A stretch of 64,000 nucleotides of DNA, taken from a virus. Taxonomy: Duplodnaviria; Caudoviricetes. The stretch covers positions 37,750-101,749 of the IMG/VR virus record IMGVR_UViG_3300023273_000812; one strand, 5' to 3'. Under the pieces are notes generated by a model. The model made no database searches and had not been told where the DNA came from. It saw only the letters and a list, made by a program, of their open reading frames with translations. The stretch's first letter is position 1, and the number at the start of each line of letters is the position of its first letter. Positions 10,288 to 63,039 of the stretch are shown here, piece by piece. The position numbers and the translations under genes are program-made.

Positions 10288-11889
10288 ATGAATAGACAAC
10301 AAAAAGAAAACCTTAAAGGTCTACTAATGAGTGGAGACAAGGGTTCCATTAATCAAGCACTATCTTTGATGGATGCTTTAGATATGGCTACACAAGAAAA
10401 GGATAGTGAACTTATAAGAGAAGTTACTAATTACCTTTATGAGGAGGGTAGTGTAGACAACGATTACTTCGAACGCTCCCAAACTTTAAGAAAAGAAATG
10501 GTTCGTTTTAAAGGTGGTGTGGTTAAGGATTTAGTGGACTTTGTAGACGAAGTTGTACATGGTTGTTGGAAGGGTCCAAAAGGTAACAAACCTACAGGTT
10601 CCGCAATGCATAGTGAAAAGACTGTTTTTAATACAGATGAACTGGATTTTCTTTATTCTGTACAAGGTGATTATAGTGCTGAAAGTCGTAACTTCGGAAC
10701 GGCTTATAATTTTGTGAATTGTTTAAAACAATCCTTAAAACAGTATGGTCTAATACAAAAGGATGATCAAGTATACGCCCGCTATGATAGGGAAGACTTC
10801 ATGTTTGAAGTAAGCTTAGACTTAAAGCAGATTAACTTTAATAAACTAAAATTAGCAAGTACAGGGAGTGATACTATGCGAAAACTAGCTAGAACGGAAC
10901 GTAAAAAAGGTATTGAGGTTTGGGTTTCCCGTAGAACAACAAACTTTCCAAAAAATGTAAACGATAAAAAGTATTGGCAAGGATACTTAGAGATGTTAGC
11001 AGACGTTCATGAATGGGATGAAGACGTTTATGAGCAGATGAAGATAGAAACCGACGAGGACGTGCTTTTAGAGAATATAAAACTAACCGATATAAACGAC
11101 CTTGGAGACAATGCTATATTGACTTTCGATGTGGATGTTTCGTTTAATGATTCTTATTATAAACACGCAAGGAGTAATACTATGCGAAAATTAACTAAGA
11201 GACAAGCAAGTCGTAAACTGGATGAGTTGTACGGTCAACTCACTAACAATAAACAAGCCTATCTAACTAGAAGAGCAAAAACTGAAACCGTAAAGTTCAC
11301 TATGGACTTTAATGAGATGTTTTCGTATGCCCAATTACGAGGTCATGATATAACTGATAGAGGTGTTATTGAGGGATTATTAATCCCTGAGTGGCAGGTA
11401 GAGGAAAAGGCTGAAGACTTTGTTATGGGTAATTATGGAGACGTGGATTGGGAAATCTACACTACCAAAGTTAAAGGAAGACCTAGAATTGACTTACATG
11501 CTGTAAGTCAAGGATATGAAGATTGGGAGATGGATGATAGCCACTATGGTGGTACCGTTTCTGGAACACTGGAGGTAACCCTTCATATTTCTGACGATAA
11601 TTCTTCAAGACGTGCTCGTTTCTCTGAAGGACCCGAAGGTACAAAAGAGTTCGAAAAGTGGAAAGCCGAACAACCCGAAGAGTTCCAAGAAGAATGGGAT
11701 GCTAATACTGAAAAGTACAAAGATAAGTTTAAACAAGCCAAGTTAACTCGTAGACAAGCAAGTCGTGCTTTAGATCGTTTACATGCACAAGTTGTAGGTA
11801 CTAAGCGTACAGCAAGTTCTAGAATGACTAAACGTCAGGCCTCTAGAAAGTTAGACTTGTTACACAAAAAACTTACTACTAGACGATAA
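10288..11889 (+). CDS. modular protein with repeated LT(K/R)RQASR.LD motifs (candidate internal head polyprotein)
   Basis: Three LT/MT.RQASR.LD motifs; internal RBS+ATG at 10876 and 11182. Confidence 0.7.
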   Translation: MNRQQKENLKGLLMSGDKGSINQALSLMDALDMATQEKDSELIREVTNYLYEEGSVDNDYFERSQTLRKEMVRFKGGVVKDLVDFVDEVVHGCWKGPKGNKPTGSAMHSEKTVFNTDELDFLYSVQGDYSAESRNFGTAYNFVNCLKQSLKQYGLIQKDDQVYARYDREDFMFEVSLDLKQINFNKLKLASTGSDTMRKLARTERKKGIEVWVSRRTTNFPKNVNDKKYWQGYLEMLADVHEWDEDVYEQMKIETDEDVLLENIKLTDINDLGDNAILTFDVDVSFNDSYYKHARSNTMRKLTKRQASRKLDELYGQLTNNKQAYLTRRAKTETVKFTMDFNEMFSYAQLRGHDITDRGVIEGLLIPEWQVEEKAEDFVMGNYGDVDWEIYTTKVKGRPRIDLHAVSQGYEDWEMDDSHYGGTVSGTLEVTLHISDDNSSRRARFSEGPEGTKEFEKWKAEQPEEFQEEWDANTEKYKDKFKQAKLTRRQASRALDRLHAQVVGTKRTASSRMTKRQASRKLDLLHKKLTTRR

Positions 11890-11914
11890 GACTTAGTGTT
11901 TTGTGGTTAGACAT

Positions 11915-11944
11915 AAGGGTACACATACAAGTGTACCCTTCTTT
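11915..11944 (+). terminator. stem-loop / intrinsic terminator
   Basis: AAGGGTACAC-ATACAA-GTGTACCCTT followed by CTTT. Confidence 0.6.
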
Positions 11945-11960
11945 GTTTATAGGAGATAGT

Positions 11961-12236
11961 ATGGACTCTGTAAGATTTATTAGAGTATGGTGTGTTGTAA
12001 GAGATGGTTTTGTTTACACTAAACAAGGAAACCTAGGACAAGGACACACAGCAATACCTTGGCAGGTTTTATTAAAGTTACATTTTAAAGTACCTTACAC
12101 ACAAGAACTTATATTAAGTGATTGGAATAGTATACCAGATACTAATAAGAAGTATGTCTATATAGATAGAAGAGAACACCAAGTTGTACTACAAGACTAC
12201 TTAGGGGCTTTAGATGAATGGGTAGAACTTAAATAG
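11961..12236 (+). CDS. hypothetical protein
   Basis: AGGAG RBS before ATG 11961. Confidence 0.6.
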   Translation: MDSVRFIRVWCVVRDGFVYTKQGNLGQGHTAIPWQVLLKLHFKVPYTQELILSDWNSIPDTNKKYVYIDRREHQVVLQDYLGALDEWVELK

Positions 12237-12274
12237 TTAGTTTATACGCTAATACTATTAAAGTAAGGTTCAGT

Positions 12275-12997
12275 ATGAAAAAACAATCAAAAGCAAATCT
12301 AACACCTAAAAGACAAATAATGGCATCTAACCAAAAGGAAAATAAAATGTCAAGAAAAATAACAGCCAAAGAACTTTTAAGAGAAGTCAGAACTTTGAAG
12401 AAACAAGCAGGTGAGAATCCTTGCGCCCCAAGACTAATTGAATACTCCGAAGATAGTGAGTTAAAGTCTCTGATTGAGCGAAGCATAGGACCAGATGGTT
12501 TGATGTATGGTTGGGGACACTTTACCTTGAAAAATATAGAGGTAGTGGATGGGATCGCGTACTTTGATGGGAACATTTCGGGTGAAGTCCCTGTTATGAA
12601 AGTGACCCCTTGGTTTGAAACTGCTAACCACCCACAAGTACAAAAAGCATTCAAAGAACTTGAGAAAGAACTGAAGTCTTTTGTAGCGAAAAACGGTCTT
12701 TCCGATTTGAGGGTAGTCGCTAGTAACGACGATTATAACAGAAATGTAGACTGGATTACATCGGTTTCTATCGTAGATAGCATAACGAATCGAAAGGTGT
12801 CCTTTCTTATAGGAGGGTGGGACACTGATTCAGCCGTTGTAGAGTCATGGTTGGGAGACCATTGGTCAAAGAAGTTCTCCGGAAATATAGATGCAGATGT
12901 TGCTATGGCAGTTTCAAATATGAGGAAGTTCATCAATAAAGACCTACTCCAGCAAGTATTAGAATCCAGAGCAAAGTTCGAAGCCAGAAAAAGATAA
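12275..12997 (+). CDS. leader-cargo protein (hypothetical cargo)
   Basis: Leader MSRKITAKELLREVRTLKKQA; alternative start at 12347 with AAGGA RBS. Confidence 0.7.
   Translation: MKKQSKANLTPKRQIMASNQKENKMSRKITAKELLREVRTLKKQAGENPCAPRLIEYSEDSELKSLIERSIGPDGLMYGWGHFTLKNIEVVDGIAYFDGNISGEVPVMKVTPWFETANHPQVQKAFKELEKELKSFVAKNGLSDLRVVASNDDYNRNVDWITSVSIVDSITNRKVSFLIGGWDTDSAVVESWLGDHWSKKFSGNIDADVAMAVSNMRKFINKDLLQQVLESRAKFEARKR
12317..12384 (+). repeat. 68-bp direct repeat, copy 1 (identical to 13825..13892; partial copy at about 13508..13546)
   Basis: ATAATGGCATCTAACCAAAAGGAAAATAAAATGTCAAGAAAAATAACAGCCAAAGAACTTTTAAGAGA. Confidence 0.9.
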
Positions 12998-13001
12998 TCT
13001 T

Positions 13002-13838
13002 ATGCGAAAACAATCTAAAGCAAATCTAACACCTAAAAGACAACGAACTCAATACTCATGTATGGCTACCTCAATGAGTATGTGTTTACAGGCCTTAGAC
13101 TATCCACACGCTAATGAGGATGAAGTCAATAAGGTAATGGGTGCTTTACCGATGAGAGGGGCCGCTTGGGAACAAGCTTTGGCATGTGCTCAGCATTATG
13201 GGTGTAGAGCCACATTAACAATGCCTTCTACAGTTAAGCAATTAAAAGAATGGACTGACCGAGGTGTTCCTGTAATGATTGCTTGGAACCCAGAGGGTCG
13301 TGATTGGTCTCATGCTTCTGTAGTCTTCGATGTAGATGAAGACTTAAATGTATATGTTGCTGACCCTAACATTCCAGACCCAGATGAAACTGTAAGGGTT
13401 GTACCTAAAACAGAGTTCTATTCAAAGTGGTACGAGAAGTGGCCGAATTATCTAGTTCGTCGCCCTGCCTGCGCTATCGAGAGAGAAATAACTCCGGATG
13501 GGAGACAAATAATGGCATCTAAAAAGGAGAATAAAATGTCAAGAAATCCAGAAATAAGAAAAATTGCTCGAGAAATCGAATCTATTAAAGGTCAATTACA
13601 AGGCAAAACAGCAGGGACTTGGGATCTTGGAACAGAACTTTCTGCGTTGAAGAAAAACTCTGGAATCCATTTCAAGTTATCAGACAAGTTAATTGGGGAA
13701 GCCGTGGGAGAAGTGCAATTATACGAAGATTTGCGTAAAGGCTACAGCCTTTTAGATCAAGTAAAAGCGATGTTGCAACAAACAATAGAAGAAATCGAAT
13801 CCATGCAGAGAAAAATTAAGTCTGATAATGGCATCTAA
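13002..13838 (+). CDS. peptidase C39-like (papain-fold) domain fused to a leader/coiled-coil module
   Basis: Q.TQYSC.ATS.SM.L (Gln/Cys), G.PVMI.W, HASVV (His), VYVADP (Asp); internal RBS+ATG at 13536. Confidence 0.8.
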   Translation: MRKQSKANLTPKRQRTQYSCMATSMSMCLQALDYPHANEDEVNKVMGALPMRGAAWEQALACAQHYGCRATLTMPSTVKQLKEWTDRGVPVMIAWNPEGRDWSHASVVFDVDEDLNVYVADPNIPDPDETVRVVPKTEFYSKWYEKWPNYLVRRPACAIEREITPDGRQIMASKKENKMSRNPEIRKIAREIESIKGQLQGKTAGTWDLGTELSALKKNSGIHFKLSDKLIGEAVGEVQLYEDLRKGYSLLDQVKAMLQQTIEEIESMQRKIKSDNGI

Positions 13839-13892
13839 CCAAAAGGAAAATAAAATGTCAAGAAAAATAACAGCCAAAGAACTTTTAAGAGA
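13825..13892 (+). repeat. 68-bp direct repeat, copy 2
   Basis: Identical to 12317..12384. Confidence 0.9.
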
Positions 13893-14568
13893 GGTTCGTG
13901 CGATTAAAAAATTAGCCGCGGGTACAAGTATTCCATCGGTTTTTCCATCTATTACAAGACAATTAAACATTCCAGAAGGTGTACAGTTCCTTCCTGATGG
14001 TAGTGGTGAGTTTGAAATTATTACAGAAAACGGCGAACATATTTACGCTGTTTTAGGAGATAGTGGTTACGAAATTAGTGGAAAAGGTGCTAAGAAACCT
14101 TTTATTAAAGCAGACATTACTTTCGATGAAGAGGGTGAAGGTGTTACAAACGATCCTAAATCCATTGTGAGTGCTATTCAAACTATGTTAAACTGGTACG
14201 ACAATGCTTTGTTAACCTCTATTAAAGACGACGAACTGGAAATGAGAAAACTTTTCTCTATGGCTTTTAAAGGTAGTAGAACCTTTGATTATGATAGTTG
14301 GTATAAAAAAGGTAAGATTTATATTATTACAGGTAAGTCTTACGGTATGCCACAGCAAGTTGTTGGTGGCGGCGGTATAGAGTTTCAGATCTATAGAGAG
14401 GGGGATAATAAGGCCAGTGTAAACGCTTTATACCCAGATAAAAGACGACATATGGGAACTTATATTGTTAACAATGTCCAATGGACTGCTAATGGTGTTC
14501 CATTAATTGACCCACGAGAATTTAAAAAGATTTTCTCTAAGGTTAGCGCTAAAACTAAAAAATGGTAA
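13828..14568 (+). CDS. leader-cargo protein (hypothetical cargo)
   Basis: Leader MSRKITAKELLREVRAIKKLAA; likely start 13855. Confidence 0.7.
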   Translation: MASNQKENKMSRKITAKELLREVRAIKKLAAGTSIPSVFPSITRQLNIPEGVQFLPDGSGEFEIITENGEHIYAVLGDSGYEISGKGAKKPFIKADITFDEEGEGVTNDPKSIVSAIQTMLNWYDNALLTSIKDDELEMRKLFSMAFKGSRTFDYDSWYKKGKIYIITGKSYGMPQQVVGGGGIEFQIYREGDNKASVNALYPDKRRHMGTYIVNNVQWTANGVPLIDPREFKKIFSKVSAKTKKW

Positions 14569-14596
14569 TAACCTTACCCTCTTATAGGAATAAGTA

Positions 14597-15301
14597 ATGC
14601 CAGCACAAGGAATATGTCTAAGAGTAACACATACAGGGGCTGTAAAAGGACCTCTGTTAGTTACTGATATACACGATGGTATAGATGCCAATGGTCGTGT
14701 TCAGGCTAATAAACCTGGTGCTGTGTATATTCCTTTTAATGGTGTTGTGGACTTAATCTATACTTCACAAGTAGCACACTCTTTTGAAGTAGGAGCTATT
14801 CGTGCTTGGATTAATACTGGATACTTAACGGCTGTGTTTGTATTTGGTACTAGTTTCCACAACACTATTACTCAAACCTCTTCTATTATTGTACAAGATG
14901 AAGGGGTACCTGTAGAAACTGAAACCACCACACTTAACTTTATTGGTGGTAATGTTACAGCCACACCAGTAGGTGGTGGTGTTGTAGATGTAGTCGTTGT
15001 AGGTGGTGGCGCCAGTACTTATTGGAATGTGCTTACTACACTTGTAGATAGGGTGGCTACCAACTCAGAGTTCATTCTTATTGATAGTGACCCAGTTACA
15101 ATAACTTTACCTGTTCCTAATGTAAGTGATCACATTGCAGTAAAAGTGATAACACCCACCATTACAAATATACAAGTTAAGACTCATGGGGCGGGTGTTT
15201 TAATAGATGGTACTGATTACTCCGTTACAGGTCTTCCTTTAACCACACAATGGGAACAAGTTAACTTTATTAGTAATGGTACAAATTGGTTTATATGGTA
15301 G
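14597..15301 (+). CDS. putative virion structural/fibre protein
   Basis: VQDEG......TLNF.G..V motif and C-terminal TITLP...IDG...SNGTNW domain common in phage fibres. Confidence 0.6.
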   Translation: MPAQGICLRVTHTGAVKGPLLVTDIHDGIDANGRVQANKPGAVYIPFNGVVDLIYTSQVAHSFEVGAIRAWINTGYLTAVFVFGTSFHNTITQTSSIIVQDEGVPVETETTTLNFIGGNVTATPVGGGVVDVVVVGGGASTYWNVLTTLVDRVATNSEFILIDSDPVTITLPVPNVSDHIAVKVITPTITNIQVKTHGAGVLIDGTDYSVTGLPLTTQWEQVNFISNGTNWFIW

Positions 15302-15307
15302 GTTTAT

Positions 15308-16915
15308 ATGTCTTACAGTCCACAAGTTAGAAATACAATAGATGAGGCGAATAGTAGTATTGTACCTTTATTGGCCGGTCAAACTTTTACTGGAGGCTGG
15401 ACAGATATAACACTATGGAATGGTATTAGTGTTTTCCTTGATGGTAAGTCCTTATCCACAGCACCTGGTACATTACAAATGCAATTCTCACAGGATTGTA
15501 TTACTGTTAATGAAAGTATCCAAATTAACATACAAGATATAGACACTGCTAACTCTAGAACACTAGCGCCTATATCTAGATACTTTCGAGTTGTATATAC
15601 CAATGGTGGTGTTGATCAAACCGTATTTAACTTACAGACTATCTATCATACATCACAAGTAAGTTCTGTTTCTAGATTAAACCAAGACCTTGTAGGAAAC
15701 GAAGATGTTATTAATGTTCGTTCTGTGTCTACTGGACAACAACCTGATGGCGACTTTGTAAACGCAAAAGCTGACGGTACTGCTTTTGTAAGTGTTGTAC
15801 CATTAGGTGTTGGTGGTGTGTATGATAGTGGTTGGGTAGACACAGATGGTTTTGTATCTGTAGAGTTGTTTATAGCCACTGATCAAGTATCTTCCTCACA
15901 AGGTATTCAAATCCTGTTTACGGATGATGTGCAAGGGGCTGCTACAGTAAGAGCCATTGAAACTTATACTTATTCACAAGACGAAGTAGATAGAGGATTT
16001 CTATCTATTAACTTTGGAACTAGGTTAGATGGGTTTAGAGTTATCTATACTAATAACTCTGTAGCGCAAACAAGTTTCTTTTTAGAGTGTGACTTAAGAA
16101 CCAATACCATTCCGTTTAGAACTAGTAACATCGGTGCTATTGTAACAACAGATTTTCAAGTAGAAGTCGCTCTTGGTAATATACCTGGTTACAGTAATGG
16201 TACTAAGTTTGGCTCTATTAGATTGATTGACGCCGCAGACGCACAACCTTTAACTATATGGCGCTTGGCGGATGATGGTAGAACACCTTTACGAGTGGCT
16301 AGAAAGACTTTTCAGACTGTTGCGAGTAACGCTTGGGTGGCTAGTAATAATGCTTTAGACGCTGGTAAACAGATTACAGTTGAACTTAATGATAGTAACA
16401 ACAATTTTGTAACTCATACACTTACTTTAAATGGTGGGGATGGTAGAATACCAGTATCTACTGGTATTAGTGCTTTAGATTGTAATGTGGCTTTTCTAAG
16501 TGGTGATACCCAAACATTAAGTGGTGATGTGTATGTTACCAATGCTAATAACTTTACGAATGGTGTTCCTAACTTAGGTAGTGCGGTTCTTGCTTTCATA
16601 TCACAAGCAGATGGTAGAACACAACAATCTGTATACAGAGTACCTAGTGGGTATACAATGATTATTCGTAATGTGTATTCTACTATTACAGCGGGTACCT
16701 CTAATGGTTCTGTGCAAGTCACATTAAGAATTAAACCTGATGGTGGTTCTTGGTATGTGGTAAGACCTTATGCTATTACAACAGCCGTAGCTTTAGATAG
16801 AGAAGAAATAATTACTTTAAGTGAAAACAGTCTTGTAGAGTTTACTGTTTCGGACATAGGTGGTAATGATACCAATACTTTAGCATTCTTTAATTATGAA
16901 TTAATTGCTAACTAA
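15308..16915 (+). CDS. putative tail/fibre structural protein
   Basis: Two related jelly-roll-like units (F/YxxGWxD...FRVxYTN...Q..F.L) and a C-terminal beta domain. Confidence 0.6.
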   Translation: MSYSPQVRNTIDEANSSIVPLLAGQTFTGGWTDITLWNGISVFLDGKSLSTAPGTLQMQFSQDCITVNESIQINIQDIDTANSRTLAPISRYFRVVYTNGGVDQTVFNLQTIYHTSQVSSVSRLNQDLVGNEDVINVRSVSTGQQPDGDFVNAKADGTAFVSVVPLGVGGVYDSGWVDTDGFVSVELFIATDQVSSSQGIQILFTDDVQGAATVRAIETYTYSQDEVDRGFLSINFGTRLDGFRVIYTNNSVAQTSFFLECDLRTNTIPFRTSNIGAIVTTDFQVEVALGNIPGYSNGTKFGSIRLIDAADAQPLTIWRLADDGRTPLRVARKTFQTVASNAWVASNNALDAGKQITVELNDSNNNFVTHTLTLNGGDGRIPVSTGISALDCNVAFLSGDTQTLSGDVYVTNANNFTNGVPNLGSAVLAFISQADGRTQQSVYRVPSGYTMIIRNVYSTITAGTSNGSVQVTLRIKPDGGSWYVVRPYAITTAVALDREEIITLSENSLVEFTVSDIGGNDTNTLAFFNYELIAN

Positions 16916-16967
16916 TACTGTATAAAAGGTTTACAGTATGTAGTATATAAATATATACGGAGGGCAT

Positions 16968-17345
16968 ATGAAAGTAATTGGTATCAATGACATTAAAGGT
17001 ATGGTGTTCAAACAAAAGTCTATTGAACAGTTAACAGAGGGTTTCGACTTAAACTTTTCTTTAGAGGAGCAACAATACTTTAAGGATATGTTGTTTAGTT
17101 ATATGGAAGCCGAACACAATATACAAGTAGAAAAGTCTATGGAAGACTTTGATGTTTACTTAGCGTTATCCTCACAAGATGCTTTATTAGGTCGTATTAG
17201 TTTTGCTGTGGAAAATAAGATGATACTTTTATTGGCTACAGGTGATAATAGTATTCATGACATAGAGAATATGAAAGAACTGTTTATGGTAGTAAAGTCT
17301 TTTTATACAGTGTACAAACAGTTCAGTAAAGGTTTAATAGGATAA
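16968..17345 (+). CDS. hypothetical protein
   Basis: GGAGG RBS, ORF. Confidence 0.6.
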   Translation: MKVIGINDIKGMVFKQKSIEQLTEGFDLNFSLEEQQYFKDMLFSYMEAEHNIQVEKSMEDFDVYLALSSQDALLGRISFAVENKMILLLATGDNSIHDIENMKELFMVVKSFYTVYKQFSKGLIG

Positions 17346-17348
17346 ACT

Positions 17349-17756
17349 ATGGCTGACATTATAGACCTTAAAGAAAAGTTACAAAAGGACTTTTATACAG
17401 AAAGACTCTATAATGGTTTATCTTTAAAATTAAGTCCTGTAGAAGGTATGGAACTTAAGTATTTATTAAGAACATACTTAGAAGAGGATTTTATATACGA
17501 GACTTCCTATGATGTAAATGAGGATGTTTTAACAGTACTTAAAAACAACAAGCCTGTAATACTTCTTACATTCACAGAAGGAAGTCATGTTTATTTCACA
17601 CCCCCTTTAGACTTCATGGGACAAGACACCGAAGTACAAAACTTGTGTATATGTTTAGTAGTGTGTGACCAGTTTATAGAAGTTTACTTAGAACTATATG
17701 GTCCTCAAGACAGTTCTACAGATGATGGTAATGTGTTAACTTTCCCAATTAAATAA
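17349..17756 (+). CDS. hypothetical protein
   Basis: ORF in operon context. Confidence 0.6.
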   Translation: MADIIDLKEKLQKDFYTERLYNGLSLKLSPVEGMELKYLLRTYLEEDFIYETSYDVNEDVLTVLKNNKPVILLTFTEGSHVYFTPPLDFMGQDTEVQNLCICLVVCDQFIEVYLELYGPQDSSTDDGNVLTFPIK

Positions 17757-17804
17757 CTTGTTTATACTAATACAATAGTTAACAAGTTATTACAGAGGAT
17801 TGTT

Positions 17805-18371
17805 ATGGGACGAGGTATTGCAGGACAAAAGCCGTTTAAGATGTTGGTTGCAAATCTTAGACAAGGATCTGATCCTTCTAAAGGTGAAAGTGGAAACCCA
17901 CAGATCGTACGCAAAACATACACTACACAAAACTTTATTGAAGTTGCGGGTAAAGGTATACCTAAAGAAGGTAAGAGTGGTAAAACACCAGGTACGGGTG
18001 TTAGAATGGGACATATTGTACAAGGTAATGTTGCACCTACTTTTACGATTTCTGTAGATAATGCTGTTAGTGCTTTAAGTACAATGGAACCTACAGAACT
18101 TGTAATGGGTGATTATGTTATTGTAAGTCATGTAGACTTTGTAGTTGTTAATGGTGATGTAAATACAACGGCTACTAATTTGGCTACTACTATTGGTACA
18201 GACACACCTTTTTCTGCAGTGGCTGTAGGGGCTATTGTAACAGTGAGTTTACCTGTTGGATTAGAGTATAATAGTATGTACACAAAAGTTACAGGACCTA
18301 ACGCAGGTGATTACACGATGTCACAAGTTGTGGAAGGAGAACCTTATATTGGTCCTGCTATTATAGGATAA
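17805..18371 (+). CDS. putative structural protein
   Basis: GAGGA RBS, promoter-like motif upstream; TTATNLA..I segment similar to sheath/structural insertion domains. Confidence 0.55.
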   Translation: MGRGIAGQKPFKMLVANLRQGSDPSKGESGNPQIVRKTYTTQNFIEVAGKGIPKEGKSGKTPGTGVRMGHIVQGNVAPTFTISVDNAVSALSTMEPTELVMGDYVIVSHVDFVVVNGDVNTTATNLATTIGTDTPFSAVAVGAIVTVSLPVGLEYNSMYTKVTGPNAGDYTMSQVVEGEPYIGPAIIG

Positions 18372-18376
18372 TAAGC

Positions 18377-19054
18377 ATGAAACAGACCAAAGAAGAAAAA
18401 CAACATATACTAGATAACTTACCTGAAGGTACGAGAAGGATACAAGTTGTTTCTCCTAATGGTAAACAACAGTATAAAAGACCGGACGAAGTGGATATAG
18501 ACACAGATGAGATTTCTATAGCACCCACCGGAGCCCCTATTGTAATGAGGGGAAAACCTGGTCGTAAACCAAAAGTGGTTCGTAATGCTGTAACACCTCA
18601 AATCGCCCAAACTTGTCAAGCAAGAGACGAGCATGTTTCTGCTAATGAGTTGTCTAATACAATAAAAGAGGACTCTAACTCTGATCGTGTAATAGAAAAC
18701 ATTCTATTAGAAATGGCTCAGGACGCGGCTACCATAGACTTTGAGAAAGACGAGGCTAGTAGAACGGGAGGTGATGTTAGTGGTTTACTAACAAAGAAAG
18801 CCCGTATCTTAAAAGGTATGTCTGATATATGGCTTCGTAAAAAGTCTTTAGATGAAGGTGGTATTATAGACTTAGAGTCTGGTACTTTCGAAGCAGTGTT
18901 TGGTTTAATACTAGAAACTTTTAAGGAAACATTGTTAGAATCTGGTGTTCACGATGAACACATAGAAACTATTTTCGCTAAGTTAGTAAGTAGTTTAGAC
19001 GATCAGTGGAAGGAAGAAGCCAAAAGAAGAATGCGTCAAGAAAGAGGTAACTAA
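18377..19054 (+). CDS. putative terminase small subunit
   Basis: Directly upstream of and TAATG-coupled to TerL; helical; call is positional. Confidence 0.45.
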   Translation: MKQTKEEKQHILDNLPEGTRRIQVVSPNGKQQYKRPDEVDIDTDEISIAPTGAPIVMRGKPGRKPKVVRNAVTPQIAQTCQARDEHVSANELSNTIKEDSNSDRVIENILLEMAQDAATIDFEKDEASRTGGDVSGLLTKKARILKGMSDIWLRKKSLDEGGIIDLESGTFEAVFGLILETFKETLLESGVHDEHIETIFAKLVSSLDDQWKEEAKRRMRQERGN

Positions 19055-20951: not shown

Positions 20952-21524
20952 ATGGCAACCTTAGTTAATTCAAGTGTCGTAGATAGTGGTGATGTGGAGT
21001 TACAGTTCCCTGGTGATAGGTTTCCAGTTACAGTAGGACCTACTTTAAGAGCCCGTGGTTGGAGAGGTGGTTTGTTTGTACAATATGTACAAACAACACA
21101 AGAGTATACAGTAGAAGTTAGTGATGGTTCTAATGTGTGTGGATTTCTGTTATTCCAATCAGAAAACTACACTCCAATGACACCTGGTGGTATTAGTACA
21201 GGGTCTCCAGAAAACTTTATTGGTAAACAGTTTCGGGCTCCTGTAGGTGGTAACAATGTTGCTACAATGATAAATGGTGGTACAAGGGCTATGTTTAAGT
21301 TCTTTGAAACCACAGCCTTGACAGGTGGGGGAACTCGTACAGGAGGGGTTATTACTTATAACTTAAATGAGGCTTTACGAGTTTCTGAAAATGGTTTATT
21401 ATGTAATGACTCAGAAGCGAATCTAATAGCTGCAGGTGTAGTTAATCCTACACAAGTAGGATTATGTAGTAGTGTTCCAAAAGAAAGTAACTTTAATCGT
21501 TTAGGTATAGACCTGAAGTACTAA
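20952..21524 (+). CDS. putative capsid decoration-like protein (paralog of 34594..35256)
   Basis: FET..L.GG...G..ITY...E.L..S.NG.L...VG....P aligns by eye with the pre-capsid gene. Confidence 0.5.
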   Translation: MATLVNSSVVDSGDVELQFPGDRFPVTVGPTLRARGWRGGLFVQYVQTTQEYTVEVSDGSNVCGFLLFQSENYTPMTPGGISTGSPENFIGKQFRAPVGGNNVATMINGGTRAMFKFFETTALTGGGTRTGGVITYNLNEALRVSENGLLCNDSEANLIAAGVVNPTQVGLCSSVPKESNFNRLGIDLKY

Positions 21525-21778
21525 TGAGAAATATACAAGGCACATATGATGAACATTTAAAAAGGGCTACTAGGGAAATAGAGTCGGCTTTAAGACTTGT
21601 AAGTGGTAGTTCTTTAAGTATTCAGGATCGTAAAAAAGTTTTACGAAAACTAGATCCTGTTTTAATGTTAATAAAACAAAGTAGTCGTGTAAAATTAGTA
21701 AACGAAGAACAAGAACAAGATGTAAAGAAGACAAGGGGTAATAAAGATGGCAACAAACGAGGACGGAACGCCAATTAA
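21524..21778 (+). CDS. hypothetical protein
   Basis: TAATG-coupled ORF. Confidence 0.5.
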   Translation: MRNIQGTYDEHLKRATREIESALRLVSGSSLSIQDRKKVLRKLDPVLMLIKQSSRVKLVNEEQEQDVKKTRGNKDGNKRGRNAN

Positions 21779-28533: not shown

Positions 28534-29529
28534 ATGTATTCAAGATACTCTTACAAAGATAAAAAAGTTGTAAAAACTAAGGATGGAGATGAAAGTACTA
28601 TATACGAGTACTCTCCGCAGGCCATTAATAAAAGACATAAAGAAAAGTCTGAAAAGGTAGAAAAACTTCGTAAGAGTATCGAGAAGTTAGAGAAGACTGT
28701 TAGTAAGGACTTGGACTCTAAAGAAAAGTCACAAGTAGCCTTAGCTGTTGCCTTAATCAACCATACTTATGAAAGAGTAGGGAATGATGGTAGTGCTGAC
28801 AATGGACACTTTGGTGTAACAGGTTGGCAAAAGAAACACATTAAGTTTAATGGAGATAAAGCCACTTTAACATATACAGGTAAAAGTGGTGTGGATCATG
28901 TAAAAGATGTCACGGACAAAAAACTTGTTAAAATGTTAAAAGACTTAACAAAAGAACATGATGAAGAAGATTGTATTTTAATGGATGTTTCCTCTACAGA
29001 TGTAAACGAATACTTAAAACAGTTTGGTGTAACTGCTAAAGACTTAAGGGGTTACCACGCTAATAGGGAAGTACAAGAACGCTTACAAAACATTAGAAAA
29101 GATAACGGTAAGTTACCTAAAGATAAAAAAGAAAGGGAAAAACAATTAAAGGAAGAGTTTAAACAAGCCATAGACGAGGCTTCTGAAGTTATTGGACACG
29201 AAGCCGCCACATTAAAAGGACAATACTTAGTTCCTCATATGGAGGAAACTTTTCTTAAAGATGGTACTGTTATAACTTCTTTAAAAATGGCTACAAAGTC
29301 AGATAGTGAAAAGGAACAAGAAGAAGACGAAAGATTAGTAAGACCTTCTCCTAAAAAGAAACCCCCTCGTAAGGACAAGCGTAGAAATAGAGTACAAGAC
29401 ACAGACTCTGACTCGGATAGGGATCAAGATAAGAAGGATCGTTCTAATAACGATAAAGACGCTAGTGTAAGAGTGGCTACGAGATACTTAAACAAAGTAG
29501 CTGTTCGTCTTGCGATGTTAAGAAGGTAA
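28534..29529 (+). CDS. DNA topoisomerase IB catalytic domain with charged C-terminal extension
   Basis: Catalytic residues in order: ERVGN (R), GKSG (K), KDLRGYHAN (R), GHEAATLKGQY (H, Y). Confidence 0.88.
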   Translation: MYSRYSYKDKKVVKTKDGDESTIYEYSPQAINKRHKEKSEKVEKLRKSIEKLEKTVSKDLDSKEKSQVALAVALINHTYERVGNDGSADNGHFGVTGWQKKHIKFNGDKATLTYTGKSGVDHVKDVTDKKLVKMLKDLTKEHDEEDCILMDVSSTDVNEYLKQFGVTAKDLRGYHANREVQERLQNIRKDNGKLPKDKKEREKQLKEEFKQAIDEASEVIGHEAATLKGQYLVPHMEETFLKDGTVITSLKMATKSDSEKEQEEDERLVRPSPKKKPPRKDKRRNRVQDTDSDSDRDQDKKDRSNNDKDASVRVATRYLNKVAVRLAMLRR

Positions 29530-31493: not shown

Positions 31494-32882
31494 ATGGCGT
31501 TCCTTAAGAAAGCAAATGCTGTTGTAGTACATCCTCGTATTAATACTCAAAACTGGTCTAACATTAGAACGGCTAGTGGTAATGGTTCTAACTTTACTAC
31601 ACAAGCAAAAGACATTTTAGGTGGTGATATAGATCCTAATAAGTACTTGTTTACACATTGTACTATTGTTGCTAGTGTAGATACAGATACTGTACCTGGT
31701 GTTAAAACAGGTTCCAAGGTCGTAGAAGGTAATAAGACTATTCAAAGACCTTACGCGGATTACTATATTAAACCACAATGTTCACAGTTTGTTAATAACA
31801 ACGGGGACAGTTGGTCTAGAGAAGTTTTATTAGCCTCCTACAGAAGTTTTATTGGAGCACATAACTTTCAAGAGCATGTTCAAATAGAAGAACAGTCTAA
31901 AGGTCGTATTATTGACGCAGTGGCTAGAGACATTGGGGATAGTGTATACATTGACATCCTTGTGGCCACAGATAGAAAACACGCTCAGTTAGTAAGTGAC
32001 ATTGAAAATGGAAACCTTACTACATTATCTATGGGTTGTACGACAGAGTTTACTATTTGTTCTCAGTGCGGAAACTTGGCTGTAGACGAACCACAATTGT
32101 GTGACCATATTAAGTACAGTAAACTTAATACTTTTATGGACGAGAGTGGACAGAAAAGAGTTGTAGCAGAGTTATGTGGACATAAAGATTACAGTACTAA
32201 TGGTGGTGTAAACTTTATAGAGGCTTCTTGGGTTGGTGTACCTGCGTTTACAGGCGCTGTAATGAGGAACATTATTACACCAGAGTCTATTCCAGTACAA
32301 GCCACACAAGTTTTAAATACTGTCCCCACACAATGGGATAATACACAATCTTTAAAAGCCGCAAGTTATGAAATGTTTAGACATGCTGAAGAAGGGGATG
32401 AGGTTGTAGAAGAAACACCAGTCCCTAGTAGTTCTTTTAAAGATTTAGAAGACGAGATGTACAACAGTATTAAAACCAGAGTACAAGATCGTATTAAACA
32501 AGAGTTGGAAAACTCTAATGTTAACTTACCTCCAGCAGATGGTCCTAATGACTCTATTATTAAAGAGGGTTCTAAAGTAAAACAGGCACAAACTATTTAT
32601 AAAGTTGCTATGGGTACTTTAGTAAAGACTAGTCAGGATCACTTTGATGTTGTAAGGGGTGTAAGTAAAGTTAATGAAAGTTTTGGTATTTACTTACCTC
32701 AAAGTTTATATGTGGCTGCTATTAAGTTAGGTTCTGTTCGAAAATACGGGAGTATTAATGAATACAGAAAAGCCTTAACAAAGGTAGCAACCTCTAATCG
32801 TTTTAATGCTGTTGGTATCCGAATGTTAGTTCGTATTGGCACATTACTATCCCAGTGGGAATCTTTTAACAATAAACAATAA
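31494..32882 (+). CDS. prohead (maturation) protease
   Basis: HK97/herpes-type motifs N.NGD, F.EH, G.IID, LSMGC (Ser), F.EASWV..PAF; immediately upstream of scaffold and capsid genes. Confidence 0.8.
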   Translation: MAFLKKANAVVVHPRINTQNWSNIRTASGNGSNFTTQAKDILGGDIDPNKYLFTHCTIVASVDTDTVPGVKTGSKVVEGNKTIQRPYADYYIKPQCSQFVNNNGDSWSREVLLASYRSFIGAHNFQEHVQIEEQSKGRIIDAVARDIGDSVYIDILVATDRKHAQLVSDIENGNLTTLSMGCTTEFTICSQCGNLAVDEPQLCDHIKYSKLNTFMDESGQKRVVAELCGHKDYSTNGGVNFIEASWVGVPAFTGAVMRNIITPESIPVQATQVLNTVPTQWDNTQSLKAASYEMFRHAEEGDEVVEETPVPSSSFKDLEDEMYNSIKTRVQDRIKQELENSNVNLPPADGPNDSIIKEGSKVKQAQTIYKVAMGTLVKTSQDHFDVVRGVSKVNESFGIYLPQSLYVAAIKLGSVRKYGSINEYRKALTKVATSNRFNAVGIRMLVRIGTLLSQWESFNNKQ

Positions 32883-32895
32883 ACAGGAGTCTAAA

Positions 32896-34416
32896 ATGAG
32901 ACGACGATCTTTTAGAAACCGCTCAGTTATGAGCAACTCCCGCACAGCAAACACCGCTAGACGGGATAGTTCTTTTGGTTCTAACACTGAAAGAAAAGCC
33001 AAGTTAACTCGTAGACAAGCTTTAAGAAGACTTGAAGCCTTGTCCTCTTTGCCAGAAGGTGAAATGGATCACCCAGCAGCACAAGCACAACCTGCTTTCA
33101 ACAAGTATGAAAAAGGTGACACTTCTGCTTGGGGTGAAGATGTACACTCTGGTCCTTACACCAATGGTGAACACCCAGCAACACCAGATGAAGGTCCTTC
33201 ACATCCAGCATACAAGTCGGCTCGTGAAATGGCTCGTTTGGAGCGCAAGGCTTCTAAGTGTGTTCGTATCGCAGAACTTACATTAGGTAGAACAGCCTCT
33301 GCTAGACAAATTGAAAACAAAGCTTTGTCTTTAATGGATACTCCTGATGCTATTCTTAACCGTCGTTTAAATCGTTTGGCTTCTATGGAAGAAAAAATGG
33401 AACACGAAATGATGGAAGAGTCCATGCAAGAAAAGATGGAATGGATGGATGGACAGATGGAAGAAGCCATGGAAGAAAGTGAAATGGTAGAAAGCATGAA
33501 GTCCGCACAATTGTTAAAGCGTTTGGCTGGTCTTGAGTCTAAACTTGTTAAGTTAGCCGAAGAAGAAGAAAAGGCTGAAGAACAAGTAGAAGAGTCTAAA
33601 GAGGAATCTAAGGAAGAATCTAAGGAAGAATCTAAAGAGGAAGCCAAGAAAAAAGCATCCTTGCTTCGTAGATTGTCTTTCTTAGAGCGTAAGTTAAAAA
33701 GACTTGCTGCTGAAGAAGAGGCAATGGAAGAAGAAGCGGAAGAAAAGCCTGAAGAGTCTAAAAAGAAAGCCCGTTTGTTAGCCATGCGTCGTAGAAGAGC
33801 CGCAGAGGAAATGGAAGAATCTAAAGAGGAATCTAAAGAGGAATCTAAAGAGGAATCTAAAGAGGAATCTAAAGAAGAAGCCAAGAAAAAAGCTTTTGCT
33901 AACTTGACTCGTACACAAAAACAAGCAATGTTCGAGTTCATGATGGACATGATGGGTGAAGACTTCGCTCCTGTAGTTGAAGAAGAAATTGTTGAAGAAG
34001 CAATGTCTCCTGAAATGGCTGAAATGATGGAAGCCGAAATGATGGAAGACCAAGCTTTGGAAATGATGTCTGACCTTGACGACCCAATGGGTGTAATGGA
34101 TGAGTCTATGTCTGATGCTGAAATGATGATCCTTTCACGCTTGTTTGGTAAGAACGCAGAAGATGCTGAAAAGAAAAAAGAAGACGAAGAAAAAGCTGAG
34201 TCTGAAGCGGCGGAAACTGTACAAGAGGAAGTAGAAGAAGAAGCCAAAGAAGAAAAGAAAGAAGAGTCTAAAAAGAAAGCCTCTTTAAGACCACAACCTA
34301 AGAAGGCTGCTACTGGAGCCACTAGATTGGGTGGTGTATCTAAAGAAGCCTCTGATGATCTTTCTGACTTGTCTAAACTTTGGGCATCTGCTCCTGACAT
34401 TCGTCGTTTCTTCTAA
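32896..34416 (+). CDS. capsid scaffold protein
   Basis: AGGAG RBS before ATG 32896; very E/K/M/A-rich coiled coil between protease and capsid genes; C-terminal LSKLWASAPDIRRFF. Confidence 0.75.
   Translation: MRRRSFRNRSVMSNSRTANTARRDSSFGSNTERKAKLTRRQALRRLEALSSLPEGEMDHPAAQAQPAFNKYEKGDTSAWGEDVHSGPYTNGEHPATPDEGPSHPAYKSAREMARLERKASKCVRIAELTLGRTASARQIENKALSLMDTPDAILNRRLNRLASMEEKMEHEMMEESMQEKMEWMDGQMEEAMEESEMVESMKSAQLLKRLAGLESKLVKLAEEEEKAEEQVEESKEESKEESKEESKEEAKKKASLLRRLSFLERKLKRLAAEEEAMEEEAEEKPEESKKKARLLAMRRRRAAEEMEESKEESKEESKEESKEESKEEAKKKAFANLTRTQKQAMFEFMMDMMGEDFAPVVEEEIVEEAMSPEMAEMMEAEMMEDQALEMMSDLDDPMGVMDESMSDAEMMILSRLFGKNAEDAEKKKEDEEKAESEAAETVQEEVEEEAKEEKKEESKKKASLRPQPKKAATGATRLGGVSKEASDDLSDLSKLWASAPDIRRFF
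33589..33636 (+). repeat. 12-bp tandem repeat (EESK x4)
   Basis: GARGARTCTAAR units. Confidence 0.85.
33814..33873 (+). repeat. 12-bp tandem repeat (EESK x5)
   Basis: GARGAATCTAAA units. Confidence 0.85.
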
Positions 34417-35271: not shown

Positions 35272-36147
35272 ATGTCCGTATCTAATTCCGTTAAGGCAAA
35301 GTTGATTTCCGATTATATTGGAACAGCTGGTGGCCGTGCTAAACTTGCAGCATCTATGACACAACCATTGCGTCTTCGTAGAGACTATATGGCTGTTGGT
35401 CGTAAAACCTTTTTGGTTGAGCAACTTCCAGATGGTGCATTACCAATCTATGACAAAGATCCTGATGTAACTGCTTATGTAGTTGGTGAAGAAGGTGAAA
35501 ACATCATCGCTGTTACTAAGCCTCGTCGTGTTATCTTCCCATTGTTCGAGATTGCTTCTAACCCTGAGATTCCTTTGACTCAAATCAAAGAGCGTCGTTT
35601 CGACTTGATTGAAAGAGCACAAGACTTGGCTCGTGGCCAAATCCAAGCAGCAGAAGACGAAAGAGTATTCGCTGTTCTTGATGCTATCGCTTCTGATGGT
35701 TTCGATTCAATTGCTGGTGGTGAAAACCCAGACATTCCTGTTGTTGCTCCTTTGAATGGTTCTGTATTGGCTGACGCCTTTGCACAAGTTGAAAGACATG
35801 ACTTGCGTGTTGCTCGTGTATTCATGAACGCTCGTGACTACGCTGACTTGCGTAAGTTCGGTCGTGACATCTTGGATCTTGAAACACAACGTGACTTGTT
35901 GAAGACTGGTTTGATGGGAACTCTTTGGGGTGCTCAAATCATTACTTCTCGTTTGGTTCCTGTAGGTACAGTTTATGTATGTTGTGAGCCTGAGATGTTT
36001 GGTCGTATTCCAGTTCGTACAGAGTTGACTGTATTGTCTGCTGACGATCCTAAAGCTCGTACAATCGGTTTCTCTTGTTTCGAAAACTTGGGAATCGGTG
36101 CTTACAACCCTAAAGGTTTGGCTCGTTTGTCAATCGTTCGTTCATAA
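35272..36147 (+). CDS. major capsid protein (HK97 fold)
   Basis: Follows protease-scaffold-decoration; AGGAGG RBS; P.FEIAS.P.I, I...ED..VF, V.MN..DY.DL, G.LWGAQII.S..VP.G.VY; strong terminator after. Confidence 0.85.
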   Translation: MSVSNSVKAKLISDYIGTAGGRAKLAASMTQPLRLRRDYMAVGRKTFLVEQLPDGALPIYDKDPDVTAYVVGEEGENIIAVTKPRRVIFPLFEIASNPEIPLTQIKERRFDLIERAQDLARGQIQAAEDERVFAVLDAIASDGFDSIAGGENPDIPVVAPLNGSVLADAFAQVERHDLRVARVFMNARDYADLRKFGRDILDLETQRDLLKTGLMGTLWGAQIITSRLVPVGTVYVCCEPEMFGRIPVRTELTVLSADDPKARTIGFSCFENLGIGAYNPKGLARLSIVRS

Positions 36148-59207: not shown

Positions 59208-59218
59208 AGGTATTTAAT

Positions 59219-60052: not shown

Positions 60053-60067
60053 ACTAAGGAGTAAACA

Positions 60068-60568
60068 ATGTCTAAAAAACTAACAGTACAGAACTTACTT
60101 AAAGAAGTAAGAGAACTTAAGAAACTAGCCAGTAGAGATTGGTTGGTAGACCAAGTAATAGAATACGAAGACCCTAGTGAGGTTAGAGGTAAGATTGAGC
60201 AGGCTTTGTCGGGTATGGTTTCACCTTATCGTATTACAGACATTCAAGTTAATGGTGACATGGCGAATGTTACTTATACAAGAACACAACCTGTTCGGTT
60301 AAGCCAAATTGAACCTTGGTGGAAAGATGAGGATTTAGTAATCACGTTGTTTCGTGGTGTTGCAGACCCACTACAACACCAGCACCAACAGTTCTTGATA
60401 GATTATGATAATGTTGGCGCAACACCACTTTATGTTTCAATCATAAGGGAAGGAACGTACGAGGTTGTTAAGTCTTATAGGTTCGACTTAACGCATAATC
60501 AAGATAACGATTTGCGAAACATATATCGAACATTAGAAAAGGACCTTAAGAAACTGAGTCGTAAGTAG
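60068..60568 (+). CDS. leader-cargo protein (hypothetical cargo)
   Basis: Leader MSKKLTVQNLLKEVRELKKLAS. Confidence 0.7.
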   Translation: MSKKLTVQNLLKEVRELKKLASRDWLVDQVIEYEDPSEVRGKIEQALSGMVSPYRITDIQVNGDMANVTYTRTQPVRLSQIEPWWKDEDLVITLFRGVADPLQHQHQQFLIDYDNVGATPLYVSIIREGTYEVVKSYRFDLTHNQDNDLRNIYRTLEKDLKKLSRK

Positions 60569-60631
60569 GTCTAAACAATAAACAGTTAATACAAACCCTT
60601 ATGTGTATACCAATCATGTAAGGGTTTTGTT

Positions 60632-61531
60632 ATGAGTGTAGTATTTCAACAAGGGCAAGTGTTGGGTCGCAATGACCTAGACATATTCTTAACTAATTCT
60701 AGTGGTAATCCTACAAACGTTTACTACATTAGTTACAGTATCTATTATGTAGACCCTAGCACAGACCAAGAAGTTCGTATTGGTCCAGATAATAGAATAC
60801 CAATGAACCCAGAAGTGGGTGAGTACTATGCTAGTTTAATGGTACCCGCTAACGCTACTCCAGGTGATTATCGTATTCGTTGGCACATTAAAGAGTTGTC
60901 TACTTCTTTATTAGAAGGTGCTGTACAAGAGTTTGGTATTGTAACACAACAACAAGATATAAGTGTAAGCCCTTATTCGGATTGTGTACAAGACCTTATT
61001 CATAAGATGAGAGTTCTTACAAGAGACAACAATCCAGATCGTAACTATAGATTTAATCCACCAGAGGGTGAAGGTACGATTGGTTGTTATAACCAAGTGT
61101 TTGGTTATATATGGACAGACGAAGAGTTCTATGAGTACTTAGAGATTGCTTTGTGGAAGTGGAATATACATCCACCAAGTACAGAACATCTTACTAGCAT
61201 CGATAGACTATGTTCACAGAATCCAAGTTGGAAAGCCGCCTTGTTATGGGGCGCTTTGGTAAACGCAGCTCAAGCCTTAGTTTATAACTGGATCGCTAAC
61301 GAGTTTGATTACAGTATTGGTGGTATTTCCCTTAACATTGAAAAGTCTTCTAAGTATGAAGGTATGAAATCTAACGCAGAAGATCAATGGGATAAGTTAA
61401 CGGAAGCTAAGTCTAGAACAGTTAAGTATATGCGTGGGTTAAAGCAATCTAAGTATGGTGTGGGTATTCGTAGTTCCTTTGGTCCGTATGTGGGACGAGG
61501 TGTTTTATCTCCAAGGGCTTATGTGTCTTAA
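60632..61531 (+). CDS. head-tail adaptor/neck protein (putative)
   Basis: W.DEE...YL..AL, helical bundle, then F.YSIGG.S..I.KS..Y beta-hairpin as in head-completion adaptors. Confidence 0.6.
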   Translation: MSVVFQQGQVLGRNDLDIFLTNSSGNPTNVYYISYSIYYVDPSTDQEVRIGPDNRIPMNPEVGEYYASLMVPANATPGDYRIRWHIKELSTSLLEGAVQEFGIVTQQQDISVSPYSDCVQDLIHKMRVLTRDNNPDRNYRFNPPEGEGTIGCYNQVFGYIWTDEEFYEYLEIALWKWNIHPPSTEHLTSIDRLCSQNPSWKAALLWGALVNAAQALVYNWIANEFDYSIGGISLNIEKSSKYEGMKSNAEDQWDKLTEAKSRTVKYMRGLKQSKYGVGIRSSFGPYVGRGVLSPRAYVS

Positions 61532-61581
61532 TAATTGGTTTATCTAAACTAACTATTGTAACTAAAAAAGGATGTACAGTT

Positions 61582-62135
61582 ATGAATGAAAACAAAAACT
61601 AGAAAACTTATTATCCAGTAAAGACCCATCTTTGGTTCAACAAGGTCTTGTTTTAAATGAAACATTAGAGTTAGTTTCCGAACAAGAAGTTTTGGAATTA
61701 GCCTTTGCACATATAACTGATGTATACAATTACTCTTGGATACATGAGAAATTAGAGTTTATCTGTGAAAGTCTTTCCAACATAGACTACTATAATAATT
61801 ATGGGCCGCAAAGTGGGTATTTTATTTTTAAGGGTCCTAGACGACATTGGGAGGATGGACAACATTACGGTGGTGGAAGTTATAGTATAAAGTTAACACA
61901 ACAAGGTCCATCACGCTTCACACTTTCTTTTTCGGACAGTACCGACCCAGAAGACTCTAACCTAACAAGGAAAGGGTGGAAAGATATGTTCGGGGATGTT
62001 TCAGGTAACGTAAGTTTTAGGGCTACTGATTACTTTAAGTTTCTGAATAGAGTAGAGAAAATTATTAAACGTAAACAAGAGGACTTAGAAGAGGCTTGGA
62101 ATGACCAAGTACCTAGTGAGTATTACGAGTACTAA
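61582..62135 (+). pseudogene. frameshifted leader-cargo gene
   Basis: ATG 61582 reads MNENKN*; a -1 shift in the GAAAAC run gives MNEKQKLENLLSSKDPSLVQQGLVLNETL, continuing into ORF 61632..62135. Confidence 0.55.
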
Positions 62136-62394
62136 GTTTTAGTAGTGGAAACGTTTAGGTTTGATGGGTTGGACTATCCTATGGATAGCATCTTTGCACA
62201 AGTAATGTGTAACTTAAGTTCCCACCTAGTTTCAGTTCCTATTCGAAAGAGTTATGGGACAACACAAGGGATAAGGCAGTACAAGACAATCTAACAGTGG
62301 AACAGTTGGAACTTAAGTTAAGTGCTAAGTTCCAATAATGTTTTAATAACCTAAGTTAACTGTAAACAATACCTAAATAAAGGAAAGTTTAATC

Positions 62395-63039
62395 GTGTCT
62401 ACTTATAAATCTTTACTTACAGAAGTAAGAACCCTTAAAAAGTTAGCCAGTGCAGACTTTAAGGAAAAACTGTTAAGTTTACTTAATAGTGGTGAAGAGG
62501 GTCAAATTAATCAAGCCATATTACTAAATGAAAGTTATGGGCTTATAGACCAAGAAATAGGTGACTTACTTATTCCTACGGTTATTATGTCTGGAAGGTA
62601 CAACACGCAAGAACATTGGAAACAAGATGGATTAGGTTGGGAACTTTTAGAAAAGTATCCAAAACACCCTCTGTGGAAAAACTTGCTTAAGTTGGACTTC
62701 CAGTATTTCAACCTAACCAGTCTACCTAGTTCAATAGGAAACTTAACTAACGTGTATGAGTTGTTGTTAAGGGAGAACAACCTAACCAGTTTACCAAAGG
62801 AAATAGGAAACCTAAGGAACTTGTATAATTTGAGTGTAAGTTTAAACAACCTAAAAAGTATACCTAAGGAAATAGGTAAGTTAAAGAACTTGTTATACTT
62901 GGACTTATATAGTAACAATCTATCTAGTTTACCAAAAGAGATAGGGAACTTAAAGAACTTGGAACAGTTGTACTTAACTGAGAACAACCTAACAATAGAA
63001 GATGTTCCTCCTAATCTTAGAAAGGTTACCTTATTCTAA
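62395..63039 (+). CDS. leucine-rich repeat protein with leader
   Basis: 23-aa repeats N.L.SLP.EIGNL.NL..L.L..N; leader LLTEVRTLKKLASA. Confidence 0.9.
   Translation: MSTYKSLLTEVRTLKKLASADFKEKLLSLLNSGEEGQINQAILLNESYGLIDQEIGDLLIPTVIMSGRYNTQEHWKQDGLGWELLEKYPKHPLWKNLLKLDFQYFNLTSLPSSIGNLTNVYELLLRENNLTSLPKEIGNLRNLYNLSVSLNNLKSIPKEIGKLKNLLYLDLYSNNLSSLPKEIGNLKNLEQLYLTENNLTIEDVPPNLRKVTLF

Follow-up and report, generated by a model that had tools for sequence, protein, structure and literature searches.

What is one and the same N-terminal peptide doing on a set of otherwise dissimilar small phage proteins? The question is raised by a 64-kb stretch of viral DNA (hereafter the window), the right-hand part of a 101.7-kb IMG/VR contig whose completeness is 23% by CheckV. 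The source is a huge phage, with a major capsid protein that shares 85% identity with that of LR745208.1 (a metagenomic phage of 485 kb), 48% with that of Tunturiibacter phage Tunturi_5 and 40% with that of Bacillus phage G. A sequence-only reading of the window had described a leader common to several open reading frames (ORFs), and had proposed that it loads cargo into the capsid and is cut off after a K/R-x-A junction. We find that the leader, of 21 residues with the consensus M-x-[KR]-K-[LI]-T-A-K-x-L-L-x-E-V-x-x-[LI]-K-K-[QL]-A, heads small accessory proteins that are hypervariable as a set and belong to a single lineage of huge phages related to phage G. Its occurrences in the window are as follows; positions throughout are those of the window unless another sequence is named.

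12347..12997, + strand: leader gene 1; leader 12347-12409 (MSRKITAKELLREVRTLKKQA), family-1 body
13536-13601, + strand: degenerate leader with its own ribosome-binding site and ATG, within ORF 13002-13838
13855..14568, + strand: leader gene 3; leader 13855-13917, body for which no relatives were found
60068..60568, + strand: leader gene; leader 60068-60130, family-1 body
62395..63039, + strand: leader gene with a GTG start; short leader 62395-62448, leucine-rich-repeat (LRR) body

A regular expression for the leader core matches exactly five times in the six frames of the window, on the + strand only: four matches are ORF starts, and the fifth (13536) lies inside ORF 13002-13838. A profile built from these five sequences scores them at E values of 1e-10 to 3e-16 among the 1,783 six-frame ORFs of the contig (L001), and adds two genes outside the window, at contig positions 11455 (- strand, E 7e-9) and 10737 (- strand, E 2e-7). 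The same seven leaders were recovered by an independent tool, and the best E value in 20 residue shuffles of the six-frame ORFs was 0.062. All five leaders of the sequence-only reading stand at the coordinates given there. Each is preceded, 6-9 nt before its ATG or GTG, by a Shine-Dalgarno-like AAGGA or AGGAG; leader gene 3 has an alternative start at 13828 that puts MASNQKENK ahead of the leader.

The leader is under purifying selection at the peptide level. In comparisons among five leaders, the proportion of synonymous differences (pS) is 0.28-0.80, near saturation, and that of nonsynonymous differences (pN) is 0.06-0.30; it is therefore the peptide, and not the DNA, on which selection acts. 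As read from the sequences, this peptide is basic and amphipathic with a heptad-like pattern. An AlphaFold2 (AF2) model of the family that includes ORF 60068 shows it as a helix (residues 7-21) followed by a small alpha/beta domain (residues 25-80); the mean predicted local distance difference test (pLDDT) score is 64.6, with residues 31-80 at 85-90. A fold search of the PDB with this mediocre model of the family-1 body gave no match at E<=0.001. Homologue searches with ORF 60068 by tblastn and a word index returned only the query itself, a protein atlas search with ORF 13855 gave no usable match, and a search for related loci with the five-row leader alignment returned one locus.

The profile has a wider reach. 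Against 1.84 billion representative proteins it finds 26 clusters at E<1e-3, of proteins 31-295 aa long, with the match beginning at residue 1 in 22 clusters and at residues 4-14 in the other four. Conservation stops sharply at K-K-[QL]-A, after which a small residue follows. If the junction is numbered as a cleavage site, P1 is Ala in 24 of the 26 clusters; P2 is Q in 15, L in nine, and M and K in one each; and P1' is S (12), A (4) or G (3) in 19 of the 26. What comes after the junction is diverse: stripped of their leaders, 32 entries (two of which duplicate local ORFs; one body of <20 aa was dropped) fall into 15 groups that are unrelated by BLASTP. In the largest, family 1, with 13 members, the invariant columns of the alignment are confined to the leader. 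Among its members are the bodies of local genes 12347 and 60068 and of contig gene 11455: the latter two are 46% identical over 67 aa, and 12347 is linked to them through metagenomic members. The claim that the bodies are unrelated beyond K-x-A is therefore only partly right, since three of the seven local bodies are paralogous; it stands for the remaining four, which are mutually unrelated by BLASTP.

The leader genes also behave as the swappable cassettes that had been proposed. A related phage sequence of 37.8 kb (G001), with genes 50-84% identical to those of the contig, carries leader genes at the same place upstream of the terminase but with different bodies; the two contig genes at 11455 and 10737 are absent from G001 between the same neighbours, and at the syntenic point LR745208 lacks the interval 10288-18376. 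A metagenome scan with a degenerate DNA pattern picked out 29 stretches. The distinct leader sites that the profile confirmed number 24, spread over 12 contigs, and on eight of these contigs there are two to five leader genes, mostly arranged in tandem. Within the window the array precedes the terminase and portal genes, and the contig pair adjoins genes for tail sheath and endolysin. In LR745208, phage G, Tunturi_5 and G004 the leader search found nothing, with a positive control that worked. Upstream of genes on the whole contig, the most enriched 7-mer at 12-90 nt is GTATATA, often as AGTATATA (11 genes, binomial P 9e-7). By eye, the genes that it precedes serve mostly replication and nucleotide metabolism; it likely marks a promoter class to which the leader genes do not belong.

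The tandem arrays of leader genes adjoin a gene for a C39-like cysteine peptidase, which in the window is the following.

13002..13838, + strand: C39-like cysteine peptidase, 278-aa ORF; Peptidase_C39_2 domain at residues 1-178 (13002-13535)

This ORF matches Peptidase_C39_2 (PF13529) at 37.3 bits, the gathering cut-off being 24, and its domain is followed in the same frame, with no intervening stop, by the 13536 leader and a helical body of 78 aa. The sequence-only reading had taken 13536 for a leader ORF in its own right: the leader is indeed there, but it is internal, behind a peptidase domain. The arrangement recurs. All four of the C39 genes seen in leader-bearing phages (the window, G001, L194 and L212) encode peptidase, leader and variable body in one frame; in L212 the order is peptidase, leader, body A, partial leader and family-1 body. 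The G001 fusion has a different body, and its peptidase part shows much stronger conservation than G001 does elsewhere. Leader gene 1 carries a trace of the same architecture: an in-frame ATG at 12275 adds MKKQSKANLTPKRQIMASNQKENK upstream of its leader, and this extension (MKKQSKANLTPKRQIMAS...) corresponds to the two ends of the C39 gene but lacks the peptidase domain between them. Being a C39 remnant, it makes the window array look like duplicated C39-leader units. KANLTPKRQ, with which ORFs 12275 and 13002 both begin, was considered as a second targeting motif and rejected, since this sequence is the N-terminus that C39 genes conserve.

The peptidase is a core gene of huge phages. We found it in 66 distinct huge-phage IMG/VR loci, at 61-92% identity and on contigs of up to 618 kb, as well as in LR745208; it is absent from phage G and Tunturi_5. 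Residues Q14, Q17, C20, H104 and D121 are invariant among 29 aligned sequences. The closest PDB folds to its model (mean pLDDT 80) are PeiR, a pseudomurein endoisopeptidase, and the double-glycine peptidases LahT150 (solved with its leader peptide), PCAT1 and ComA; among predicted viral structures, its nearest neighbours are the peptidase domains of lysins and tape-measure proteins. Other C39 ORFs have a conserved ...ERE[IV][TS]x[DE]G[RK]Q[VIM][MV]AS at the close of the domain, beyond which come variable extensions of 14 to >800 aa; the GRQ[VIM][MV]AS segment falls in a lower-confidence linker of the model (block pLDDT 76 and 52). On a 297-kb IMG/VR contig (L038), the C39 ORF at 5896-7245 holds GRQVMA[FS] twice, 88 residues apart and the second time followed by SRVAARYA; it looks like a duplicated junction module.

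A second short motif, A-[SA]-R-V-A-[SAT]-[RK]-[YF]-L (the AS-RVA-x-RYL tag), usually follows directly on the GRQ segment or sits where the extension ends. A strict RVAxRYL expression has 36 matches in the 66 C39 loci against 0.65 in shuffles. Among 33 distinct instances, 16 lie no more than 12 residues after a Met and ten lie within 20 residues of a stop; the other seven are internal, often between domains. The window holds a single instance, at the C-terminus of an ORF between the portal and prohead protease genes.

28534..29529, + strand: topoisomerase-IB-like gene in the head module (Pfam Topoisom_I, E 9.5e-28), with the tag ASVRVATRYL at 29470-29490

This topoisomerase IB is of the eukaryote/poxvirus type. 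The LR745208 homologue is longer and ends in KVATTYLEAL; by eye, it has an FDFDGTLF (haloacid dehalogenase-like) domain in front. An RVAxRYL profile at >=8 bits gave one match in our own contig, one in G001 and three in G004, with none in the shuffled counterparts; LR745208 gave three real and two shuffled matches at this threshold (two and none at 10 bits), and phage G and Tunturi_5 gave none, real or shuffled. Another LR745208.1 frame, of 503 aa (348706-347198, - strand), has two RVAxR-type motifs (SQAARVAARH and SQSAARIASKYL) at what look like domain boundaries. In the first of its domains a pair of H-x-T-L motifs resembles those of 2H phosphoesterases, and the whole may be a polyprotein-like effector. 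That the leader is itself a variant of RVAxRYL was considered and rejected, as alignment of the two profiles by hhalign gave a probability of 0.15%. The sole link between them is their common position after the GRQ[VI]MAS of C39 ORFs; we treat them as putative functional analogues whose homology is unproven.

The other genes of the head module are listed here with two further ORFs.

10288..11889, + strand: ORF of 533 aa, immediately upstream of the leader array
19054-20949: terminase (PHROGs)
20952-21524: ORF of 190 aa between terminase and portal
21747-23441: portal (PHROGs)
31494..32882, + strand: prohead maturation protease (phrog_18299)
32836..34416, + strand: putative scaffolding protein, acidic and helix-rich, in scaffold position; likely start ATG 32896
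35272..36147, + strand: major capsid protein (PHROGs), the 85% match to LR745208.1

The putative scaffold is acidic with basic amphipathic helices, and both peptides that had been quoted for its likeness to the leader are in this ORF; the likeness itself does not carry over to the profile, as will be seen. K[KR]xA is enriched in it, with seven occurrences against 1.07 expected from 10,000 composition-preserving shuffles. A PDB sequence search with the prohead protease gave nothing significant. Its tail, by eye like that of the topoisomerase, was a candidate tag carrier and was rejected: 13 relatives show a conserved helical domain free of the motif.

Several observations stand apart from this argument. 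The C-terminal half of ORF 10288-11889 has three copies of [KM][LM]T[KR]RQASR.LD.L (at 11191, 11743 and 11824), a motif that opens, like the leader, with K-L-T; the N-terminal region of the scaffold has one similar copy, KLTRRQALRRLEAL (33004). Another motif, LL.SG....INQAL.L, is common to the LRR body (62395-63039) and the N-terminus of ORF 10288 (10288-10390), and in metagenomic LRR relatives it comes directly after the leader. Homologues of the 190-aa ORF lie no more than 6 kb from the C39 gene in 16 of the 66 loci (median identity 52.6%). In phage G, MSKKISRLKKTA opens gp20 (L004 14471-14959), the ORF immediately before the scaffold-like gp21, which itself carries KKTAKS close to its end; the pair may be a compressed counterpart of leader and junction in a phage that has neither a leader match nor a C39 gene.

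How, then, is the leader best explained? We hypothesize, tentatively and as something short of probable, that it is a cleavable sorting tag, analogous to the capsid-targeting sequence (CTS) of T4, and that the proteins behind it are delivered with the virion. We lean this way because the pattern fits T4: one N-terminal tag, many unrelated small bodies and variable loci. Also in its favour are the selection on a peptide whose bodies are exchanged, the sharp end of conservation at KK[QL]A, the cassette behaviour in arrays and insertion hot spots, the siting of the window array before terminase and portal and of the contig pair beside tail sheath and endolysin, the surplus of K[KR]xA in the scaffold, and the RVAxRYL tag on a topoisomerase IB whose gene lies between those for portal and prohead protease. 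Leader proteins and peptidase alike would be docked by the helix to one shared assembly partner and would most probably end up in the scaffold-filled procapsid; like the internal proteins of T4, the cargo would be packaged there and injected together with the DNA. The tag would then be removed at K-K-[QL]-A before S, G or A, and of the possible cutting enzymes we slightly favour the co-encoded C39-like peptidase over the prohead serine protease. Several points weigh against this explanation. The K[KR]xA sites of the scaffold lie in repeated EESK..KKKA units and are therefore not independent, and the leader profile scores the scaffold at a non-significant E=38. Across its 13 relatives, the C-terminal domain of the prohead protease has neither the leader nor the RVAxRYL tag. 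LR745208 and phage G have homologous head genes and yet no leader, so any leader receptor must be lineage-specific; nor did a search of upstream k-mers turn up a late-promoter motif common to leader genes and head genes. Tags are also found at C-termini and between the domains of long ORFs, which fits polyprotein processing as well as targeting. Finally, the viral fold neighbours of the peptidase are mostly cell-wall peptidase domains, and it may not process proteins at all.

The coupling of leader to C39 peptidase, which the sequence-only reading had overlooked, would supply a serious alternative protease and possibly a different mechanism, in which the leader is a recognition helix for the co-encoded peptidase, much as bacteriocin-processing C39 domains recognise double-glycine leaders, and the peptidase, at the head of a polyprotein or array, releases the bodies in cis and in trans with no need of a capsid. 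The process could be pro-protein activation, or a second maturation protease, akin to the cysteine protease of adenoviruses, could be at work. We regard this main rival as a possibility on the unlikely side. In its favour are the in-frame fusion in all four C39 genes of leader-bearing phages, the resemblance of the window array to duplicated C39-leader units, and a core gene whose conserved GRQ[VIM][MV]AS leads into variable extensions in 66 loci; that LahT150 with its leader peptide, PCAT1 and ComA are among the closest solved folds points the same way. RVAxRYL at >=8 bits was seen in all four C39-positive and neither of two C39-negative sequences, a small sample confounded by relatedness, and the co-occurrence as a whole comes from few, related genomes. 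The junction, moreover, has Q or L at P2 rather than the Gly of double-glycine sites; there is no ATP-binding cassette (ABC) transporter partner, no transporter family having been matched; and the viral structural neighbours are peptidase domains of lysins. Minimal C39 proteins stop 14-20 residues past the domain and so have nothing to release, and the several extensions with the tag at their far C-terminus suit a tag better than a junction. This mechanism and the sorting tag can be combined: the tag would deliver the cargo, and the cysteine peptidase would mature it.

Neither cleavage nor the virion need come into it if the helix served for docking or oligomerisation in general, as a coiled-coil handle by which the protein attaches to a phage or host hub protein, to membrane or to DNA. 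The heptad-like amphipathic pattern would suit such a role, as would the isolated helix 7-21 ahead of a compact domain in the AF2 model and the spread of RVAxRYL over N-termini, C-termini and internal positions (16, 10 and 7 of 33); the sharp boundary with its small P1' residue, and positions at the domain junctions of polyprotein-like ORFs, are more suggestive of processing sites, and we think this explanation improbable. Far more remote is the idea that the shared sequence has no function as a peptide, and is instead a translation-initiation or regulatory element in the nucleic acid or the residue of a recent duplication. Two of the window leaders are almost identical to each other, together with the 30 nt upstream of them, as this idea would have it; the peptide, however, is kept with synonymous sites near saturation and is retained in 26 diverged clusters, and we consider the pS and pN values to have refuted it already.

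At its broadest, the sorting tag would be part of something larger, which we put forward as an unlikely speculation: that huge phages possess a dedicated sorting and processing system, built from the C39-like peptidase and short tags, that matures a changing set of virion-delivered effectors. In such a system AS-RVA-x-RYL would be the tag in most lineages and the 21-residue leader an expanded version in this one. The peptidase would head polyprotein-like ORFs and arrays, recognise the tag as the C39 domains of bacteriocin systems do, and form a cysteine-protease pathway, like those of adenovirus and poxvirus, beside the classical prohead serine protease.

Were the tag to load the capsid, the injected arsenal of uncultured megaphages could be read by sequence alone. 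It would include candidate anti-defence effectors (an LRR protein, a peptidase and many orphans), and the tag would be a portable means of packaging foreign proteins, a use to which the T4 CTS has already been put. The C39 coupling, together with the wider AS-RVA-x-RYL tag, suggests that huge phages have a processing pathway of which we found no description. A full-text literature search for the motifs brought up a single paper, a chemistry review with no bearing on them; the available portion of a comparative review of jumbo phages makes no mention of 'C39', and the parts of the phage G literature available to us hold virion proteomics and no cleavage sites. The concept is known from T4; for the leader, its C39 coupling, the polyprotein-like fusions and the AS-RVA-x-RYL tag we found no published account.

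The T4 precedent invoked in the sequence-only reading is accurate: in the available text of the two sources, the Ip proteins have only an N-terminal leader in common, this leader directs their packaging, and their genes occupy a genomic hot spot (PMC3012670, PMC12373910). The genes described here resemble those of the T4 CTS proteins (Ip1-3, Alt and others) in that a short N-terminal leader is the only common part of diverse small proteins, and those of the internal proteins in that they sit in variable loci and are swapped between related phages. Unlike the T4 CTS, our leader is about twice as long, strongly basic and helical. Its junction is KKxA followed by a small residue, whereas T4 gp21 cleaves at L/I-x-E. 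It is also fused behind a cysteine peptidase and can be internal.

With double-glycine/C39 systems the phage genes share a papain-like C39 fold with its Cys/His pair, and an amphipathic helical leader that is followed by small residues and stands before many cargoes. The leader, in contrast, has no GG, GA or GS end; the peptidase is not the N-terminal domain of an ABC exporter, since the ORFs continue into leader or variable extensions; and the cargoes are folded proteins of 60-295 aa rather than peptides, with the peptidase fused to leader and cargo. Large DNA viruses offer another parallel in their cysteine maturation proteases, such as the adenovirus protease with its pVIc peptide and the core proteases of poxviruses and African swine fever virus: here too, a viral cysteine protease goes with a short motif near termini and domain junctions, although cleavage is hypothetical in our case. 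Lambda C/Nu3 and similar phages have nested protease and scaffold genes, and the in-frame internal start at 13536 could likewise yield two products with the same tail, a peptidase fusion and its C-terminal part on its own; the enzyme, however, is a C39-like cysteine peptidase and not a prohead protease, and the common part is the leader and variable body. Encapsulins, lastly, sort cargo into an HK97-fold shell by means of a short terminal peptide: the tag is alike in being short and in standing at either end of a protein, and differs in having no sequence resemblance to the encapsulin cargo-loading peptides, while its binding to a capsid protein is hypothetical.

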